From Thermoproteota archaeon (GTDB taxonomy: Archaea; Korarchaeota; Korarchaeia; Korarchaeales; Korarchaeaceae): DNA of 40,769 nucleotides. The stretch spans positions 1-40,769 of the forward strand of contig JAOZFG010000040.1 of NCBI GenBank assembly GCA_027491435.1, written 5' to 3'. Below the pieces are notes generated by a model. It did not search any database. It was not told the origin of the DNA and saw only the letters and a program-made list of their open reading frames with translations. This document shows, piece after piece, positions 7,554-16,476 of this stretch. The stretch's first letter is position 1. Each line of letters opens with the position of its first letter. The translations under genes and the position numbers were made by a program.

Positions 7554-9566
7554 TTGAGCAGCGAAAGGAAAGGGCTCATCATAGACTCCTTGGTTGTAGC
7601 GGCCACTTACCTGATAAGCCTAGTAATTAGGATCCTGCCGACCTTCAAGTACGGCGCCCACCTGACGGCCGACGACCCCTTGCTCCACTACAGGATAACT
7701 AAGGCCCTTATTGAGACTGGGACTATACCCCATTATGATCCTCTCTCCTGGTTTCCCTGGAGCTTTGACCCCACCAAGATATTGCCTCCGCTTCACTACT
7801 ACACGGGAGCGGCCATTTACTTCGTAGCCAGTGCCCTCGGCTTCAAAGACCTTTACACCGTGGTCGTTTACATACCAGCTTTCTTCTCGCCTCTCGTGAT
7901 CATACCCCTTTACTTATTGGCTAAGGAGTTGTGGGGAAGGCCCGCTGCCATAATATCGGCCTTAGCAATATCACTATCCTGGGCTTACGCCAGCAGGTCC
8001 CTGGCAGGCTTTTATAGGCACGAGCAGTTCGCCATTCCGATATTGATGGCCTCCCTATACTTCACCGTTAAGGCCATGAGAGCTAAGGAGCTCTGGAAAA
8101 CTGTCCTGTACGCAGGAATTAGCGGGATATTCTTGGTCTACGCATCAGGCGTATGGGCGGCCTTCAGGCTTCTCTACGACGGATACGCCCTCTTCCTGAT
8201 AATACTTCTCCTGCTAAACAGGCTCTCCATTAAGGAGCTCCTGGCCTTGGGCCTACCTCCGCTCTACGTATTAGTGGCCTCCTTTGGAGCTCTCTCAAAC
8301 CTGGCCTTCAGGAAGCTTTACATAAGCTTTGAGAGCACCCTCGTGTGGGCTGCCTTGCTGGCCTCGTTTGTGTACGTGACCTCTCCTAAGCTGAACTTGA
8401 GCTTGATAAAGGGGAGAAGAAGGGAGGTGTCCCTAGCCGTAGGGTTGCTGTTGCTTTTAGGATTTCTAGTGACTGGCGCTTATCACCCACTAACAGGAAG
8501 GTTGATGAGGGTCCTCAACCCCTCAGCCAAGCTATGGCACGGAAACGTCGTTGAAACGGTAGCCGAGCACGGGTCGGGGGCGCTAGTGGAGACCATGACT
8601 ACCCTGCTTATCCCCGGAGTGATGGGCCTCTTCTTCTTGGGAGTTAGCAGGTGGAGGAACAACGACGAGCTCCTCCTTTTCGTCCTATCCTTGGCCTCGC
8701 TTTACTTCGCCCTGAGCATAGTTAGGTTGCCCCCCATAGCCGCCCCGTTCATGGCTTTAATGGCGGGTTTCTTCACCGAGAAGGTGCTGGAGCTCTTTCA
8801 GGACAGGTTTAAGAGAGTTGCTTCTTTGGAGAGGGCCATGTCCAAGAGGGGGGCTAAGCTCCCCCTTTCCAAGAAGGTCAAGATGCTCAAGGCCCCCGTT
8901 ATAACGCTAACCCTCTTGGTGGTATTGCCCGTCCTGCTTCAAGGCGGGATCATCAGGTACTCCGGCAGGTACGTGTTCACCCCGTTGATGGCCTCTGAAT
9001 ACTCCCTTGGGTTCTCAGAGGGATGGAGGCAGACCCTGAGCTGGTTAAAGAACAACACTAAGCCTTCAGACGTCGTGATATCCTGGTGGGACTATGGGTA
9101 CTGGATGCAGACCGGCGCCGGCAAGATAACCTTGGCGGACGGGCTCACCATCAACGAGACCCAGATAAGGCTGATAGCTAAGGCCTTCATGGGCAGTGAG
9201 GAGGAAATGCTCAAGCTGGCCAGCATGTTCAACGCCACCTACGTGGTAGTCGACGTGCCAGCCGAAGTTGGCAGGTTTTCTGGAGGAGGTAAGTGGGTCG
9301 CTATGGCCTGGATAGCTGAAAAGTTTAAGTACAGTCCATACAGGCCCGACGAAGCCCAGAAGTGGTTCACCCAAGACTTGCCCAAGTACTTCAACGTGGA
9401 CAGGAACACTGGAATGGCCTATCCAACTGAACGAACCATGAACACCACCTTGTTCAAGATGGCGTTAGGGGCCGTCAGGGAGGTTCCCATGAATTACTTC
9501 GAGAGGGTCTTCGTAGGCAAGACAGGTGGCTACGTCCACGTCGTCGTTTATAAGCTGAAGGGGTGA
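7554..9566 (+). CDS. aglB: Oligosaccharyltransferase AglB/STT3
   Basis: Multi-TM N-terminus with DDPLLHY and TVAEH (TIXE), then the WWDYG motif and DG-T-N..QI. Confidence 0.93.
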   Translation: MSSERKGLIIDSLVVAATYLISLVIRILPTFKYGAHLTADDPLLHYRITKALIETGTIPHYDPLSWFPWSFDPTKILPPLHYYTGAAIYFVASALGFKDLYTVVVYIPAFFSPLVIIPLYLLAKELWGRPAAIISALAISLSWAYASRSLAGFYRHEQFAIPILMASLYFTVKAMRAKELWKTVLYAGISGIFLVYASGVWAAFRLLYDGYALFLIILLLLNRLSIKELLALGLPPLYVLVASFGALSNLAFRKLYISFESTLVWAALLASFVYVTSPKLNLSLIKGRRREVSLAVGLLLLLGFLVTGAYHPLTGRLMRVLNPSAKLWHGNVVETVAEHGSGALVETMTTLLIPGVMGLFFLGVSRWRNNDELLLFVLSLASLYFALSIVRLPPIAAPFMALMAGFFTEKVLELFQDRFKRVASLERAMSKRGAKLPLSKKVKMLKAPVITLTLLVVLPVLLQGGIIRYSGRYVFTPLMASEYSLGFSEGWRQTLSWLKNNTKPSDVVISWWDYGYWMQTGAGKITLADGLTINETQIRLIAKAFMGSEEEMLKLASMFNATYVVVDVPAEVGRFSGGGKWVAMAWIAEKFKYSPYRPDEAQKWFTQDLPKYFNVDRNTGMAYPTERTMNTTLFKMALGAVREVPMNYFERVFVGKTGGYVHVVVYKLKG

Positions 9567-11317: not shown

Positions 11318-12646
11318 ATGGAAGTACCTAAGATTGTCGTCACCCCTCCCGGCCCTAAGGCCAAGGAATTGCTTGAGAGAGACTCCCGTGTCATTTCCCC
11401 CTCATACGTCAGGTTTTACCCGCTAGTGGTTGATAGGGCTGAGGGTTCCCTTATCTACGACGTCGACGGTAACGTTTACATTGACATGAACGCTGGCCTG
11501 GCGGTCATGGCGGTCGGCCATAAACACCCTAAGGTTGTCGAGGCGGTTAAGCGGCAGGTGGAAAAGCTAGTCCACTATTCAAACACGGACTTCTACTACG
11601 AGGAGTCCGTCAAGTTCGCTGAGAAGCTCGTCAGCATAGCCCCTGGAGGTACCCCTAAGAGGGTTTACTTCGGGAATAGCGGCGCTGAGGCCATAGAAGC
11701 GGCCATTAAACTTGCCAGGTGGAAGACCAGAAGGCAGTACATAATAGCTTTTATAGGAGCCTTTCACGGCAGAACCTACGGGGCTATGAGCCTTACAGCC
11801 AGCAAGCCCGTGCAGAGAGCAGGCTTCTCCCCCCTGTTGCCCAGCGTAGTCCACGTGCCTTACCCTTACCCGTTCAGGTGTCCCTTCTACGCCCCGCCTG
11901 ACGACCCCGAGGAGTGCGGGAATAGAGCCTTAGCGTTCATAGAGGACTGGGTGCTCGGCAGGTACGTCCCACCTGATGAGGTGGCCGCCTTCGTCTTCGA
12001 GCCCATCCAGGGAGAGGGAGGCTATGTGGTCCCTCCAAAGAACTTCATACCAGGTTTGAAGAAGATAGCTGAGGAGCACGGAATACTCCTGATAGACGAT
12101 GAAATTCAGTCTGGAATGGGCAGAACTGGTAGGTGGTGGGCCATCGAACACTTCGGCGTTGAGCCAGACATAATGACCAGCGCCAAGGCTTTGGGAGGGG
12201 GCTTCCCGATAGGGGCGACCATAGCTAAGGCGGAGATAATGGAGTGGCCCGGAGGGTCCCACGCTTCCACCTTCGGAGGTAACCCCGTGTCCTGCGCCTC
12301 TGGCCTGGCCACTATAGAAGTAATAGAGGAGGAAAAACTCGTGGAGAGAGCCGCTAAACTTGGAGAGAAGGTGATGAAGAGGCTCAACGAGTGGAAGGAG
12401 AAGTACAGCTCAGTTGGGGATGTCAGAGGATTAGGGCTAATGATAGGAGTGGAAATCGTGAACAGGGATGGGCGGCCGGGTAAGGAGGAGGCTCACGAGA
12501 TAATGATGAACTCCTGGAGGAGAGGAGTTGCCATAATAACGGCGGGAAAGAGCACTATCAGGGTGGTACCTCCGCTGAACATACCTGAGGAGTACTTGGA
12601 CAGAGCCCTAGACATAGTGGAGGAAGAGGTTAAGAAGTTCGGGTAA
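11318..12646 (+). CDS. Class III PLP aminotransferase (ornithine/acetylornithine/4-aminobutyrate type)
   Basis: PPGPKA, NSGAEAIEAA, FHGRT, EPIQGEGG, DEIQSGMGRTG, SAKALGGG (PLP Lys), HASTFGGNP. Confidence 0.92.
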   Translation: MEVPKIVVTPPGPKAKELLERDSRVISPSYVRFYPLVVDRAEGSLIYDVDGNVYIDMNAGLAVMAVGHKHPKVVEAVKRQVEKLVHYSNTDFYYEESVKFAEKLVSIAPGGTPKRVYFGNSGAEAIEAAIKLARWKTRRQYIIAFIGAFHGRTYGAMSLTASKPVQRAGFSPLLPSVVHVPYPYPFRCPFYAPPDDPEECGNRALAFIEDWVLGRYVPPDEVAAFVFEPIQGEGGYVVPPKNFIPGLKKIAEEHGILLIDDEIQSGMGRTGRWWAIEHFGVEPDIMTSAKALGGGFPIGATIAKAEIMEWPGGSHASTFGGNPVSCASGLATIEVIEEEKLVERAAKLGEKVMKRLNEWKEKYSSVGDVRGLGLMIGVEIVNRDGRPGKEEAHEIMMNSWRRGVAIITAGKSTIRVVPPLNIPEEYLDRALDIVEEEVKKFG

Positions 12647-14030
12647 CCTCCTCCACCTCCTTTATCAGGCCCTCTAGAGATTCCCTGAACCTATTCTCGT
12701 ACTCACCCAGCCTGCCTATATCGTCAAGCGTCTTCCTTCTCCTGGCGTTTATCGCACCCTTGAGGAGCTCTGGATTGGGCCCTCCTCTCCCCCTGCTCTT
12801 AAGGACCTCCTCCAATTTGGGCATTTCTACCTCTAACCTCCGGGACGCCTCCTCCAAAGACCACCCGGCCTCTCTCAGGGCCGAGGCTAGCTTGGAGTGG
12901 GCCTCCCTGTAGGTCATCCCTCCCCCCTTTGTCAGCCTCTCAGCGACGTCTTGAGCTAAAGTCCCTCCCTTGATCGCCTCTTCCCTTAAAACTTCACTTC
13001 TGAAGGTGATTTTGGACAATAAATCTGACATCACTTTCAACGATGACCTAACCTCGTCTATTGAGTTTATTAGGTGTTTATTAACCTCCTGCAGGTCGAG
13101 GTTGTAGCCCGAGGTTATCCCCTTCTGAATTGTCAGGGAGGCGGTGAGTGAACCTAAGAGCTCGCCAGCCTTAGCCCTCACTATTTCTAAGGTGACGGGG
13201 TTCCTTTTGTGGGGCATTATGCTGCTGGTCGACACGTGCTCCTCAGGCAGCTCCAGGTACCCGAACTGTGGGGAAGACCACACTATGAAGTCCTCAGCTA
13301 CTCTGCTCAGGAAGGTAGCCAGAGAGGCCAAAACCCCCAGGGTCAGGTTAATGAACGTCCTACTTCCTGTCGCGTAAACGGTGTTGTCCTCCACCCCAGA
13401 GAAGCCCAGTAGCTGTGCTAACCTGCCTCTATCTAATTTCACCGAGCTCCCGGCTATAGGCCCTGAGCCTAGGGGGGATAGGTCCACTTCCCTCGTCAAG
13501 ACTTCCCAAAGAATGTCCCAATGGGCTGACGCTTCCCTCTCCAGGTAGATCAGGTAGTGGGCCACCGTCGAAGGTTGAGCCGGTCTCATGTGTGTGAAGA
13601 GCGGCAGGGGTGTCTCAACAAGATCTTTAGCCCTGTCCAGCGTCACGACCCTGAACTTGAGCAGATCCCACAGCAGGCCTATCAGCGACCTCTTGGCCTT
13701 TAGCCTGAGGGCAGTGGCCACCTGATCGTTCCTGCTTTTTCCAAAGGCCAGCCAACCAGCTCCTTCACCCGATTGATTAAGAAGCCAGCTCTCTAATGCT
13801 TCGTGTACGTCCTCATAACCTTCTAAAGGGATCCTTTCACGAAGAGCCCTTACCAAATTTTTCAAGGCTGGTATTGTCTCCTCTCCCACTATCCCCAGCT
13901 CAAATAAATGGTAAAGGTGAGCTAGGGCAGTTAGGACGACTTCTTCGTATATCTGAACGTCATGCCTCGTGGAAGAAGTAAACTCCCTTAGCCACTGGGG
14001 CTGTTCCCCTAATCCCGATTTTCGGTACAT
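12630..14030 (-). CDS. argH: Argininosuccinate lyase
   Basis: [40 protein letters not shown]. Confidence 0.95.
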
Positions 14031-15219
14031 CCCTCCTCGCCGCCCTAGTAGTCAGGGTGTGAAGGCCCCAAGCCTGTATAAAGCCTCTCGCCTCCTCATC
14101 GCTCGGGTACCAACCCTCGTCGTAGCCAGCTATCTCCTTGGAGTAGGCTGAGTAAGGCGAGGACCTGCCCACTACGATAACTGAGCCCTTGTAGAGTTTG
14201 ATCCTGACCTCCCCAGTCACATAATGGTTCAACTTAGCTATGAACTCCTCAAGGCTCTCCCTCAGAGGATCTGCCCACAGTCCCTCGTAGACCAAGTTAG
14301 TCCACTCGTTATCGGCCAGCGACTTGAACTTGAGCTCCCTCCTGGAGAGGATGGCCTTCTCAAGGTCCTTATGAGCTTCTATTAAGGTGATGGCAGCGGG
14401 CGCTTCGTAAACCTCCCTGCTCTTGAACCCTATTACCCTGCTCTCCATGTGGTCCACCCTGCCCACCCCGTGTTCTCCAGCCATCTTATTGAGTTCAGAG
14501 ACCAACTCGGGCAGGTCAAGCCTCCTATCATTTAGGGAAGTTGGTATGCCCTTCTCGAACCATATGTTCAAGTACATCGGTTCATCCGGGGCTTTTTCCG
14601 GGTTAACCGTCCACTCGAAAGCCTCCTCTGGTGGCTCCGCCCAGGGGTCCTCCAGCTCGCCCCCCTCTATACTCCTACCCCATAGGTTCTGATCGACGCT
14701 GTATTTGCTGTGGGTTTCGGGGATATCAAGTCCCTTTAATTTAGCGTACTCCAGCTCCTCCTTCCTCGTCCACTTCCAGATCCTGGTAGGGGCTATTACC
14801 TCCAGGTTGGGATCGAGGGCCTTTACGGTGACGTCAAACCTGACCTGATCATTTCCCTTCGAAGTGCAGCCGTGGGCTACGGCGTCGGCTCCTTCTTTGT
14901 GGGCGATTTCCACAAGCTTCTCAGCTATTAGGGGTCTGGACAGGGCACTTGACAGGGGGTACTTGCCCTCATATAGGGCGTTAGCCCTTATAGCAGGAGC
15001 CACAAATCTCTCAGCGAATTCCGAAATCAGGTCCAGGCTGTAATGCTTGACCGCTCCGGCTTGATAGGCCCTCTCCTCTATGGACCTCATGTCCGCCTTT
15101 TGTCCGACGTTGGCGGTTAGGGTCACCACCTCTACGCCTTGATCCTGGAACCACTTGATCGCTACAGTAGTATCCAAGCCTCCAGAGTAGGCCAGGACTA
15201 CCTTAGAAACAGACTTCAG
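13960..15219 (-). CDS. argG: Argininosuccinate synthase (start inferred at CTG 15219)
   Basis: [12 protein letters not shown] lies in frame upstream of the track's TTG 15177. Also [35 protein letters not shown]. Confidence 0.93.
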
Positions 15220-15239
15220 GAGCTTCTCCGGTAACGCAC
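15216..15239 (-). promoter_or_regulatory. Arg-rich upstream mini-ORF (MRYRRSS*) overlapping the argG start
   Basis: AAGGTGA SD, then a 4-nt spacer, then GTG CGT TAC CGG AGA AGC TCC TGA. The stop overlaps the argG-frame CTG (CTGA). Confidence 0.5.
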
Positions 15240-15321
15240 AGTCTCACCTTGGGGCAGGTCGCCCCTTTGACAATAAAAAGTTTTTGTTCCGACGGCACGG
15301 ACGTTCCGTCAAATTTATTGG

Positions 15322-16152
15322 GTGAGCTATCTCACTTATCCGATGAGACGGGACGTCAGGGAGATCTGGGAGCTTATAAAGGATAAGGTAGACGTAACGG
15401 AGGAGGAGTTCCTCAGAAGAATTGAGGGCTTGAAGAGGAAGTTGAACTTAGCTGATAGGGCTTTAGCCATAATAGTGGCGAGCAAACTTGGTGTTGATGC
15501 CAGCGAGCTGCTTCACCCGCCTTTGGTGGGCAGGCTTATGAGCTTTTCTACTAGGAAGGTCACGGTGGGCGGAGCCCCGTATAAACTCTTCACGCTAGTC
15601 AACAACAGAGAGAGGTACTTCTGCGTGGCCTTTGGCGAGGATAAGGTTTCCATGATAAATTCTGAAAACGAAGACAAGGTGTTCAGGATAAAGAGGTATG
15701 TGGAAACTAGGCTGGGAGGGTCTAAGGCCTACAGGGCTGGGGAGAGTTCTATTGTGGAAATACTCCCGGACGACTACCTGCCACCCATAACTGAGCTCCA
15801 ACCAGCTAGAGGTACCATTGAGAAGGCCTTGAAGAGCAGGCTCTACTACATAGTCACTTTCATGGTACTAGATGAGGAGTCCGTGGACTATCTGGCCTGT
15901 CCCATATGTGGGAGGGGGCTTGAGGCCAAGGACAGCGAGCTCATATGCCCGGAGCACGGCGTGATAAGGGAGGCGGAGACCAAAACCGTGCTGAGGTATA
16001 AGGTGGCGGACAGCACGGGCATATACTCGGCGGTCTACTTCGGCGATTATCCTGGCCTCATGAAGGGTAAGCTTGTCACAGCGAAGGGGTTCGGAAAGGA
16101 GGGTGACTTCCACATAACTAAGTTCTACAAGGCGGAAGAGGTTGACGTCTGA
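15322..16152 (+). CDS. Replication protein A-like ssDNA-binding protein (OB folds plus Zn finger)
   Basis: N-terminal helical domain, an OB-like segment, and YLACPICG...CPEHG...DSTG..AVYFG as in the RPA Zn-OB domain. Confidence 0.72.
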   Translation: MSYLTYPMRRDVREIWELIKDKVDVTEEEFLRRIEGLKRKLNLADRALAIIVASKLGVDASELLHPPLVGRLMSFSTRKVTVGGAPYKLFTLVNNRERYFCVAFGEDKVSMINSENEDKVFRIKRYVETRLGGSKAYRAGESSIVEILPDDYLPPITELQPARGTIEKALKSRLYYIVTFMVLDEESVDYLACPICGRGLEAKDSELICPEHGVIREAETKTVLRYKVADSTGIYSAVYFGDYPGLMKGKLVTAKGFGKEGDFHITKFYKAEEVDV

Positions 16153-16476
16153 TCAGGAGTACTCTCTCCAAGTGTAGCCGCACTTAGTGCACGTGTATAT
16201 CCTGGTCGGAGGCTCATCGGCAGCCCTAGTCTGCACTATCTGGAAGTAAGCCCTGTTGTTCCCGCACTTGGGGCAAGTGGCTTCCACTACTGGGAAGGGC
16301 ATCTTTCCCCCCTCCTTTATCTCCACGTCCTCCCTGTTGGAGACAACCTTCGTCGTCACGACCGATGAGATTCCTGGATTGTTCTCCATGACGTAACCGC
16401 AACTGGGGCAGACGTACACGAGCTTCCCATCTTCCACCCTGGGCCTCATCAACGTGCCGCACTTCGGGCAGAACAT
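16153..16476 (-). CDS. tfs: Transcription elongation/cleavage factor TFS
   Basis: MFCPKCG..CPSC, CPKC, QTRAADEPPT..Y.CTKCGYTWREY, with the catalytic DE intact. Confidence 0.95.
   Translation of the reverse strand: MFCPKCGTLMRPRVEDGKLVYVCPSCGYVMENNPGISSVVTTKVVSNREDVEIKEGGKMPFPVVEATCPKCGNNRAYFQIVQTRAADEPPTRIYTCTKCGYTWREYS

Follow-up and report, generated by a model that had tools for sequence, protein, structure and literature searches.

A rare arginine codon in an out-of-frame leader of korarchaeal argG: a candidate site of programmed frameshifting

The stretch analysed here, 40,769 nucleotides (nt) of contig JAOZFG010000040.1 from an archaeon of the Korarchaeaceae (assembly GCA_027491435.1; hereafter the window), carries a gene for argininosuccinate synthase, argG, preceded by a short open reading frame (mini-ORF) with a strong Shine-Dalgarno (SD) sequence and a GTG start that is out of frame with argG. 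Comparison among relatives shows that the argG frame has no conserved start, whereas the out-of-frame GTG is kept. The initial annotation had proposed that ArgG is made either by reinitiation or by a shift within the leader; of the two, it is a shift within the leader at an arginine codon that agrees best with the comparison of genomes, and a second gene of the arginine pathway, carA, offers a clear precedent for a change of frame at the same codon, CGG. On the full proposal – that ArgG would be made by a programmed frameshift (-1 or +2) out of the short SD-led mini-ORF at the rare CGG, with scarce Arg-tRNA raising ArgG – our judgement is evenly balanced.

The argG leader and the frame that is translated

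The argG locus is read on the minus strand, and positions are those of the whole window. From a TGA at 15246-15244 the argG frame runs GAC TGT GCG TTA CCG GAG AAG CTC CTG AAG TCT GTT TCT AAG GTA GTC CTG GCC, and before the ATP-binding motif it contains no ATG, GTG or TTG. The earliest canonical in-frame start is TTG 15177, within the AYSGGLDT motif itself; it is the start of the public gene call (13960-15177, minus strand), a protein of 405 amino acids (aa) beginning MDTTVAIKW. The open frame is an argininosuccinate synthase in which the N-terminal HUP domain, with its AYSGGLDT(S/T) ATP-binding motif, and the C-terminal domain are both present: PF00764 matches at E 8e-67, its profile positions 1-161 aligning from residue 14 onward, and PF20979 at E 3e-86; position 1 of the N-terminal domain falls at K 15204. 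The annotated argG starts of relatives are of three kinds – TTG 30 nt before the motif, or ATG 39 or 81 nt before it – and automatic annotation is unreliable for argG across the lineage. The clusters that hold the relatives' ArgG proteins bear the names Candidatus Korarchaeum cryptofilum and Korarchaeota.

The GTG of the mini-ORF (15239-15237) is placed 4 nt after the SD sequence AAGGTGA and out of the argG frame, which can be reached from the mini-ORF by a -1 or +2 shift. This arrangement had been described in the initial annotation, along with the CTGA overlap at the end of the mini-ORF, a TATA-like box and the letters of the hairpins; all of these, and the absence of an in-frame ATG, GTG or TTG before the motif, were recovered exactly where it had placed them. 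Of the 1396 first starts of long frames in this genome, 100 have GGTGA exactly 4 nt before them; of 18117 internal start-like codons, 28 do. The spacing at GTG 15239 is the dominant one in the genome, and the start of the mini-ORF looks functional.

Aligning the argG 5′ regions of relatives shows that the mini-ORF is conserved. Protein searches recovered argG from 31 of 41 related genomes and, at E <= 1e-100, from 25 of the 36 genomes that make up the family; the leaders compared come from 19 genomes of one genus (g1, including the window's own) and three of a second (g2), 22 in total. All 22 argG-bearing genomes of the two genera share one 5′ layout: an AT-rich box, about 29 nt, [ACT]AGGTGA (22/22), 4 or 5 nt, GTG, NGT TAC CGG and, two to four codons on, a stop. 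The argG frame lies one base behind the mini-ORF, and in most cases a stop just upstream, TAG or the TGA within the SD sequence, closes it. The start of the mini-ORF is GTG in 20 leaders, ATG in one (L019) and lost in one (L016), and is thus kept in 21, while TAC CGG is present in every leader. The distance from AGGTGA to T_TAC_CGG is 9 nt in the window, L011, L013, L018, L019, L020 and L256, and 10 nt in the other 15. Two of the assemblies with this layout consist of one and two contigs. A third genus (g5) has a plain ATG start in each of its three argG genes.

The leader had also been described as Arg-rich, a description that the alignment does not sustain: the codon before TAC CGG is CGT in 13 leaders, AGT in eight and CAT in one, the codon after it is AGA in 18, ATA in two and AAT in two, and only CGG is invariant. 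Wider scans for the leader pattern gave at least 116 matches in metagenome contigs besides 103 in contigs of genomes, and 254 loci were available; 21 of these loci (18 distinct leaders) stand before an argG motif, all but one of them duplicating leaders already in the comparison, and the remaining matches are chance matches in bacteria.

A critical issue is which of the two frames is translated as protein. Parsimony changes were counted on a tree of the coding bodies over 19 gapless leaders, leaving out the window, L020 and L256 on account of their indels. The element TTACCGGA shows no inferred change in the 19 leaders and is identical in the three left out, at a locus where third positions of argG average about 4.5 changes per site. 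In the argG-frame codons that follow it, changes at the first, second and third positions are 0/0/1 for GAG, 0/1/4 for ATT, 0/0/2 for CCT, 5/4/3 for a variable codon and 0/0/4 for TTG. From ATT to the motif the count is 19/14/46, and over the first 100 codons of the argG body, which by this measure is under strong purifying selection, it is 103/49/451 (19 genomes in each case). The codon before ATT is GAG, GAT or GAA and shows the same third-position pattern; the closest pair of leaders, L014 and L015, differ at five sites, all of them third positions of the argG frame. The argG frame therefore behaves as coding from no later than the ATT that stands 39 nt ahead of the motif; the preceding GAG/GAT/GAA, which in the window is the GAG at 15228-15226 next to CCG, fits too. 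In short, the pattern of substitution shows the argG frame to be translated upstream of every candidate in-frame start. In the mini-ORF frame past CGG, by comparison, most changes fall at its second positions, and beyond that codon the mini-ORF is thus unconstrained as a protein.

The candidate starts themselves drift. In the 19 gapless leaders the codon that lies 39 nt ahead of the motif reads ATT 13 times, ATC twice, ATG three times and ACT once; it is AAG in the window and TAC in L020 and L256. The leucine codon at the mini-ORF stop is TTG in 14 of the 22, TTA in five and CTG in three, with four inferred third-base changes. L255 combines ACT with TTA, so that neither position holds a canonical or a near-cognate start. 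This leader belongs to a genome (G043) filed under g2, but the argG tree places its gene within the g1 clade, and the leader is of the g1 type (48-nt spacing); gene transfer, binning or taxonomy could account for its placement.

Four other routes into the argG frame were considered and set aside. The in-frame ATG 81 nt upstream exists in only three genomes, and lies about 4-5 nt past the TATA box, and the frame of this ATG contains TAG in a close relative. In eight genomes TGA blocks the third frame as a way in; transcriptional slippage lacks a homopolymer run; and a spliced intron has too little space, the coding signature being continuous through it.

At the centre of the leader is the block GTTACCGGA, in which the sole variation is at the first base (A instead of G in L010). 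Constraint from both frames could fix most of this block, yet the first T of T_TAC_CGG, a synonymous position in either frame, never changes. A shared operator was considered as an explanation and rejected: GTTACCGGAG occurs five times in the 1.64-Mb genome (its reversed control twice), and the extended leader element has its single occurrence at the argG copy. The rarity of CGN codons suspected in the window extends to the whole genome, where the 1314 non-overlapping long frames contain, per 1000 codons, 1.03 CGG and 0.81 CGT compared with 49.4 AGG. CGG accounts for three of 8714 codons in the 22 argG bodies, and the body of the window's argG has no CGN among its 24 arginine codons.

Changes of frame at CGG in carA

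A search of the family for carA found it in 12 of 36 genomes at E <= 1e-40, ten of them in g1 and two in g5 (this genome's copy, L265, lies on contig C27 of G000, 8404-9516, plus strand; relatives are L266-L274). The two g5 genes are ordinary. In the ten g1 genomes no in-frame start precedes the conserved N-terminus, and the frame into which the first junction leads has neither a canonical nor a near-cognate start. At this junction (site 1, 10/10) an ATG-led mini-ORF meets [C/G]TT CGG and stops one to five codons later, as in ATG TAC CTT CGG CGT TGA (relatives) or ATG TCG GTG AGC GTC CTT CGG CCT (this genome), and the CarA N-terminus resumes from TTC GGN in the +1 frame. A second junction (site 2), always 91 nt after the first, is present in eight of the ten, being absent from this genome and G003; it reads GTT CGG TGA or GTT CGG AGA, and the CarA body resumes from TTC GGT GAG in the next +1 frame.

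Several lines of evidence indicate that the pieces on either side of the frame changes are translated. Joined by a +1 step at each site, they align without gaps to single-frame homologues. Where carA is split, the frame of the body begins at position 21 of the 126 in profile PF00988, whereas the single-frame CarA of this genome covers 1-126, and the out-of-frame piece matches the N-terminus of that unbroken CarA (E 8e-6). Its changes by codon position (21/11/40) indicate purifying selection. At site 2 CGG must stay unread, because the conserved glycine of GEVVF is read from GGN, and from the alignment we see no reading of this site other than +1 frameshifting. The carA sites match the known NUU_CGN class of +1 frameshift motifs in sequence: re-pairing of the P-site codon at +1 is possible, and the frame entered is the +1 frame. 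The start of carB is normal and its ATG overlaps the end of carA (L265:2598-2619, plus strand), so that frameshift-limited translation of carA could limit carB too.

Among the other arginine-pathway genes of this genome, two of the OTCase fold and two of the semialdehyde-dehydrogenase fold have an ordinary SD sequence and start. A start-proximal scan of the genome returned 48 CGG candidates, of which only argG and carA look convincing; CGG ranked 20th and 56th of the 61 codons and is therefore not enriched at start-proximal junctions. A scan for internal junctions told nothing either way: it gave 681 CGG sites, and the median over codons was 578.

Frameshifting and its rivals

According to the proposal, ribosomes would start at GTG 15239, read codon 2 and then TAC, and wait at the rare CGG. 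While Tyr-tRNA is paired with UAC in the P site and CGG stands in the A site, some ribosomes would move into the argG frame – by a -1 step, such that CCG GAG and onward are read, or formally by +2 or by the next tRNA binding out of frame – and the engaged SD/anti-SD helix 9-10 nt upstream would aid the shift. Ribosomes that decode CGG, as they would when arginine is ample, would finish a seven-residue peptide and terminate. Because the wait at CGG would depend on charged tRNA-Arg, low arginine would mean more shifting and more ArgG, which is the useful direction; argH, overlapping the end of argG, would follow by coupling. It is in this form that we infer the tuning by Arg-tRNA supply suggested in the initial annotation. 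The one or two +1 sites of carA, [C/G]UU_CGG, would extend the switch to two entries to the arginine pathway. The wider claim, that the Korarchaeia gate this pathway by obligatory frameshifts at CGG (one non-slippery SD-driven -1 site in argG and one or two +1 sites in carA, with charged tRNA-Arg read by the ribosome), is more tentative, and the balance tips somewhat against it.

Three features expected of a frameshift site are found in the argG leader. Overlapping frames are kept, with the SD sequence and start one base ahead (21/22), and ArgG, whose frame has no conserved start, would depend on passage to the -1 frame; an SD sequence lies upstream at 9 or 10 nt in the 22 leaders, within the 9-14 nt expected for -1; and a rare arginine codon would occupy the A site, as in +1 motifs, in all 22. 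Passages of a review give 3 nt as the SD distance that stimulates +1 shifts and 9-14 nt for -1, and mention one insertion sequence (IS) in which a single SD serves both initiation and frameshifting (PMC5009743).

A number of observations nonetheless weigh against a frameshift at argG. The site, T_TAC_CGG, is not a slippery heptamer of the form X_XXY_YYZ, and in the passages of the frameshift literature consulted (PMC5009743, PMC5880360) no known shift site of this type was found. Nor does it share the re-pairing of +1 motifs, the P-site codon being TAC and the target frame -1 or +2, and the direction of the shift would differ from that in carA (+1). After a -1 move tRNA-Tyr would, by standard pairing rules, keep one of its three pairs. 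A -1 site would be expected to have a stem-loop or pseudoknot 5-9 nt downstream, yet no consensus structure is present in the 80 nt after the site (alifold energy 0.0, 19 leaders). CGG is readable, given that genes for tRNA-Arg(CCG) and tRNA-Arg(UCG) are present; ARAGORN calls tRNA-Arg anticodons CCG (two calls), TCG, GCG, TCT and CCT. In the 1314 long frames neither in-frame TAC_CGG (11 observed, 12.75 expected) nor in-frame NTT_CGG (23 observed, 23.8 expected) is avoided, which makes it unlikely that the hexamers alone are highly shift-prone. L016 lacks the GTG, and the only GTG left in that frame is the one inside its SD sequence. The lineage seems able to start at CTG, as described below for a TFB gene, and the window's argG has GGAG, 6 nt and CTG. 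Finally, the relatives are kin rather than independent samples, and the comparison is one of sequences.

The TFB gene came from a sweep of the genome for SD-led out-of-frame starts, whose 27 candidates yielded argG and this one further gene, with a probable CTG start. It lies on contig C5 of G000 (59087-60064, plus strand; L277/L278, with relatives L279-L296), and its zinc ribbon in this genome is encoded upstream of any in-frame ATG, GTG or TTG. In all 19 genomes of the genus an SD-like GGTG[AG] is followed, 5-6 nt on, by an invariant CTG; a stop (TAA or TAG) directly precedes this CTG in three genomes, and an upstream GTG GTG is out of frame in six. From this alignment CUG initiation probably exists in the lineage. 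A conserved TTCGGCAAT is found near the likely transcript start.

The possibility of such a start in argG itself is the most serious rival to frameshifting, and we keep it as such, in view of the counter-evidence that includes TFB, while judging it unlikely. Here initiation would be in frame and non-canonical, with or without termination-reinitiation, at CTG 15219 in the window and, for relatives, at TTG, ATT, ATC or ATG; the only part of the mini-ORF would be to bring in or hold ribosomes and to open local structure. In its favour, the mini-ORF stop overlaps an argG-frame leucine codon in all 22 leaders, as NTGA or TTAA; that codon is the canonical start TTG in 14; and ATN stands nine bases upstream in 18 of the 19 gapless leaders. 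The invariance of the TFB CTG (19/19) makes CUG initiation in the lineage probable, and the possible stem described below would mask GGAG until the mini-ORF is translated. Stop-start overlaps are reported to support coupling in archaea (PMC6728339). An overlap of the kind noted in the initial annotation is common to all leaders, but the codon overlapped varies, and reinitiation at it is disfavoured: no one codon serves all genomes, TTG having given way to TTA, which is not a start, in five, ATT, ATC and ATG interchanging at the upstream position, and L255 having neither. A codon that is used as a start stays fixed, as the CTG of TFB does, whereas the argG candidates drift, and this weakens the case for an in-frame start. 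Moreover, coding-type substitutions reach upstream of both candidates, the invariance of TAC CGG and the presence of a rare arginine codon in an arginine gene are left unexplained, and site 1 of carA has the same mini-ORF layout without a canonical or near-cognate start in its target frame.

A frameshift that senses nothing would account for some of the same facts. An old 1-nt lesion at the 5′ end may be tolerated by fixed, low-level shifting, with ArgG set low and no part played by arginine; we consider this quite improbable, more so than an in-frame start. The 'correction' of indels by translation is one of the uses of frameshifting listed in passages of PMC5009743. With the shift site just three codons into the mini-ORF, an engaged SD could act there whatever the arginine level, and tRNAs that read CGG are encoded. 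Against constitutive shifting, three separate junctions (argG and carA sites 1 and 2) all place CGG, a codon used about once in 1000, as the zero-frame codon at the break, and the only two genes that look convincing among the 48 CGG candidates both belong to the arginine pathway. Last, an assembly error, a recent frameshift mutation or a pseudogene – suggested by the truncated gene call, with its start inside the ATP-binding motif, and by a pathway that may be patchy, the search with this query at E <= 1e-40 having found no carA in 11 of the genus's 21 genomes – is contradicted by the same frame relation in 22 of 22 independent assemblies, the next genus, g5, having a plain ATG, by an argG frame that is intact for 383-410 codons from motif to stop, and by purifying selection on argG and on the out-of-frame piece of carA, and has a negligible probability.

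Known systems and other features of the locus

Programmed frameshifting at a rare arginine codon is known; an obligatory, and probably arginine-sensing, use of it for archaeal enzymes of the arginine pathway would be new. The closest parallels concern carA. In Ty1 (CUU_AGG_C) a slowly read rare arginine codon in the A site lets Leu-tRNA slip +1 with no elaborate stimulator, and Ty shift sites are under-represented in yeast, according to passages of PMC5009743. The [C/G]UU_CGG of carA follows the same logic with the same type of P-site codon, whereas in argG the P-site UAC cannot re-pair and a -1 or +2 move is needed, in an archaeal biosynthetic gene rather than a retroelement. In amalgaviruses and influenza A (UCC_UUU_CGU) the motif is UUU_CGN, where the P-site tRNA slips to UUC and the rare arginine codon CGN is skipped (PMC5880360). 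The NUU_CGG of carA followed by UUC GGN is the same move, although the known systems are viral and eukaryotic; argG shares with them only the rare CGN in the A site.

Other parallels bear on the sensing of supply and on the role of the SD sequence. At RF2 (prfB) and antizyme the efficiency of shifting reports the supply of an A-site factor or the product of a pathway, and an internal SD stimulates the RF2 shift, as set out in passages of PMC5009743; argG would sense charged tRNA-Arg, and its SD is the initiation SD, at 9-10 nt and not 3 nt. With the -1 sites of Escherichia coli dnaX and IS elements argG shares an upstream SD at 9-14 nt, but those sites have slippery heptamers of the A_AAA_AAG type and often a 3′ stem-loop, and the argG leader has neither. 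'Hungry codon' shifting in starved E. coli, in which a shortage of aminoacyl-tRNA at the A site causes single-base shifts, is treated in the same passages (PMC5009743) as an error process whose natural use is unclear; in argG it would be conserved, and the cell would depend on it for the very enzyme that supplies the amino acid in short supply. Chromosomal frameshifts in archaea are few in that account: virus tail genes, a predicted magnesium chelatase case and a possible Sulfolobus case (PMC5009743).

If the proposal is right, the truncated or mis-started argG and the split carA of automatic annotation across the lineage distort metabolic reconstructions of the Korarchaeota. In bacterial attenuation, and with the fungal arginine attenuator peptide, a short upstream ORF contains codons for, or responds to, the amino acid of the pathway. 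The argG leader differs in having no alternative terminator hairpins and, for argG, no start of its own; its mini-ORF has six to eight codons and one invariant arginine codon, with only Tyr-Arg conserved. Of the marks of transcription attenuation by a leader peptide, it shows no run of cognate codons, no terminator, no covarying structure and no independent start for the gene; a search of the minus strand over 14900-15600 gave no terminator-like site. The literature search, which did not extend to subscription journals, found nothing on a korarchaeal argG or carA leader or frameshift, nor on an amino-acid-sensing leader in archaea. Should the wider claim prove right, the switches in argG and carA would do in archaea, at the ribosome, what attenuation does in bacteria, and would provide the first natural instance in which a biosynthetic enzyme has hungry-codon frameshifting as its required route. 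On the proposal for argG, a process long studied as error would gain a conserved regulatory use, and a non-slippery -1 site as close as three codons to an SD-led start would represent a new type.

The hairpins of the initial annotation had a mixed outcome: the elements GGAG (15228-15225) and CTCC (15222-15219) and the GGGGC/GCCCC repeat are all present in the window, but their sequences are not conserved in relatives. At the place of the GGGGC/GCCCC repeat some relatives have other GC-rich repeats and some have none; the repeat is probably upstream of or at the transcript start. A different stem around the shift site, ACCGGAGAU with RUCUCC-AA-GGU, emerged from RNAalifold on 20 leaders, with pairing possible in 95% of cells; its covariation does not exceed that of shuffled alignments (66-131 of 500 reach the observed values), and by this analysis it is a possible but unproven structure. 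Rfam 15 returned no family match to the leader, the one match (E = 4, other strand) being noise.

The features of the locus are collected in Table 1. We take the TATA-like box, from the usual geometry of archaeal promoters, to be the argG promoter, presumably with the transcript starting just upstream of the SD sequence; relatives have an AT-rich AACTTTATAA or AACTTTTTAT in its place.

Table 1. Features at the 5′ end of argG and downstream of it, in window positions
Feature	Positions	Strand	Remarks
TATA-like box CTTTTTAT	15273..15280	-	putative argG promoter; begins 29 nt before AAGGTGA in the window and L002
Inverted repeat GGGGC-GACCT-GCCCC	15251..15265	-	between TATA box and SD sequence
Shine-Dalgarno sequence AAGGTGA	15244..15250	-	contains TGA, the upstream stop of the argG frame
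Mini-ORF GTG CGT TAC CGG AGA AGC TCC TGA (V/M-RYRRSS-stop)	15216..15239	-	one base ahead of the argG frame
Invariant block	15227..15235	-	proposed shift site T_TAC_CGG 15234-15228; rare Arg codon CGG 15230-15228
argG-frame CTG	15217..15219	-	overlaps mini-ORF stop TGA 15218-15216 (CTGA); rival start or reinitiation codon, GGAG 6 nt upstream
Possible stem ACCGGAGA (15232-15225) with TTTCT-AA-GGT (15209-15200)	15200..15232	-	RNAalifold consensus, 20 leaders
argG coding frame	13960..15231	-	from CCG, the first codon read after a -1 shift, to the TGA stop; ATP-binding motif 15204-15169
argH-like ORF	12630..14030	-	downstream of argG; argH label from reading its translation

If ATG 14030 is used, the argH-like ORF overlaps the end of argG by 71 nt (13960-14030), with GGAGGG just upstream, and its translation may depend on that of argG. 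A gene at 15322-16152 on the plus strand is divergent from argG and starts about 75 nt away, and the AT-rich box may serve both directions. The next ORF (16153-16476, minus strand) encodes 107 aa with four CxxC pairs and resembles, by eye, transcription factor S/RpoM.

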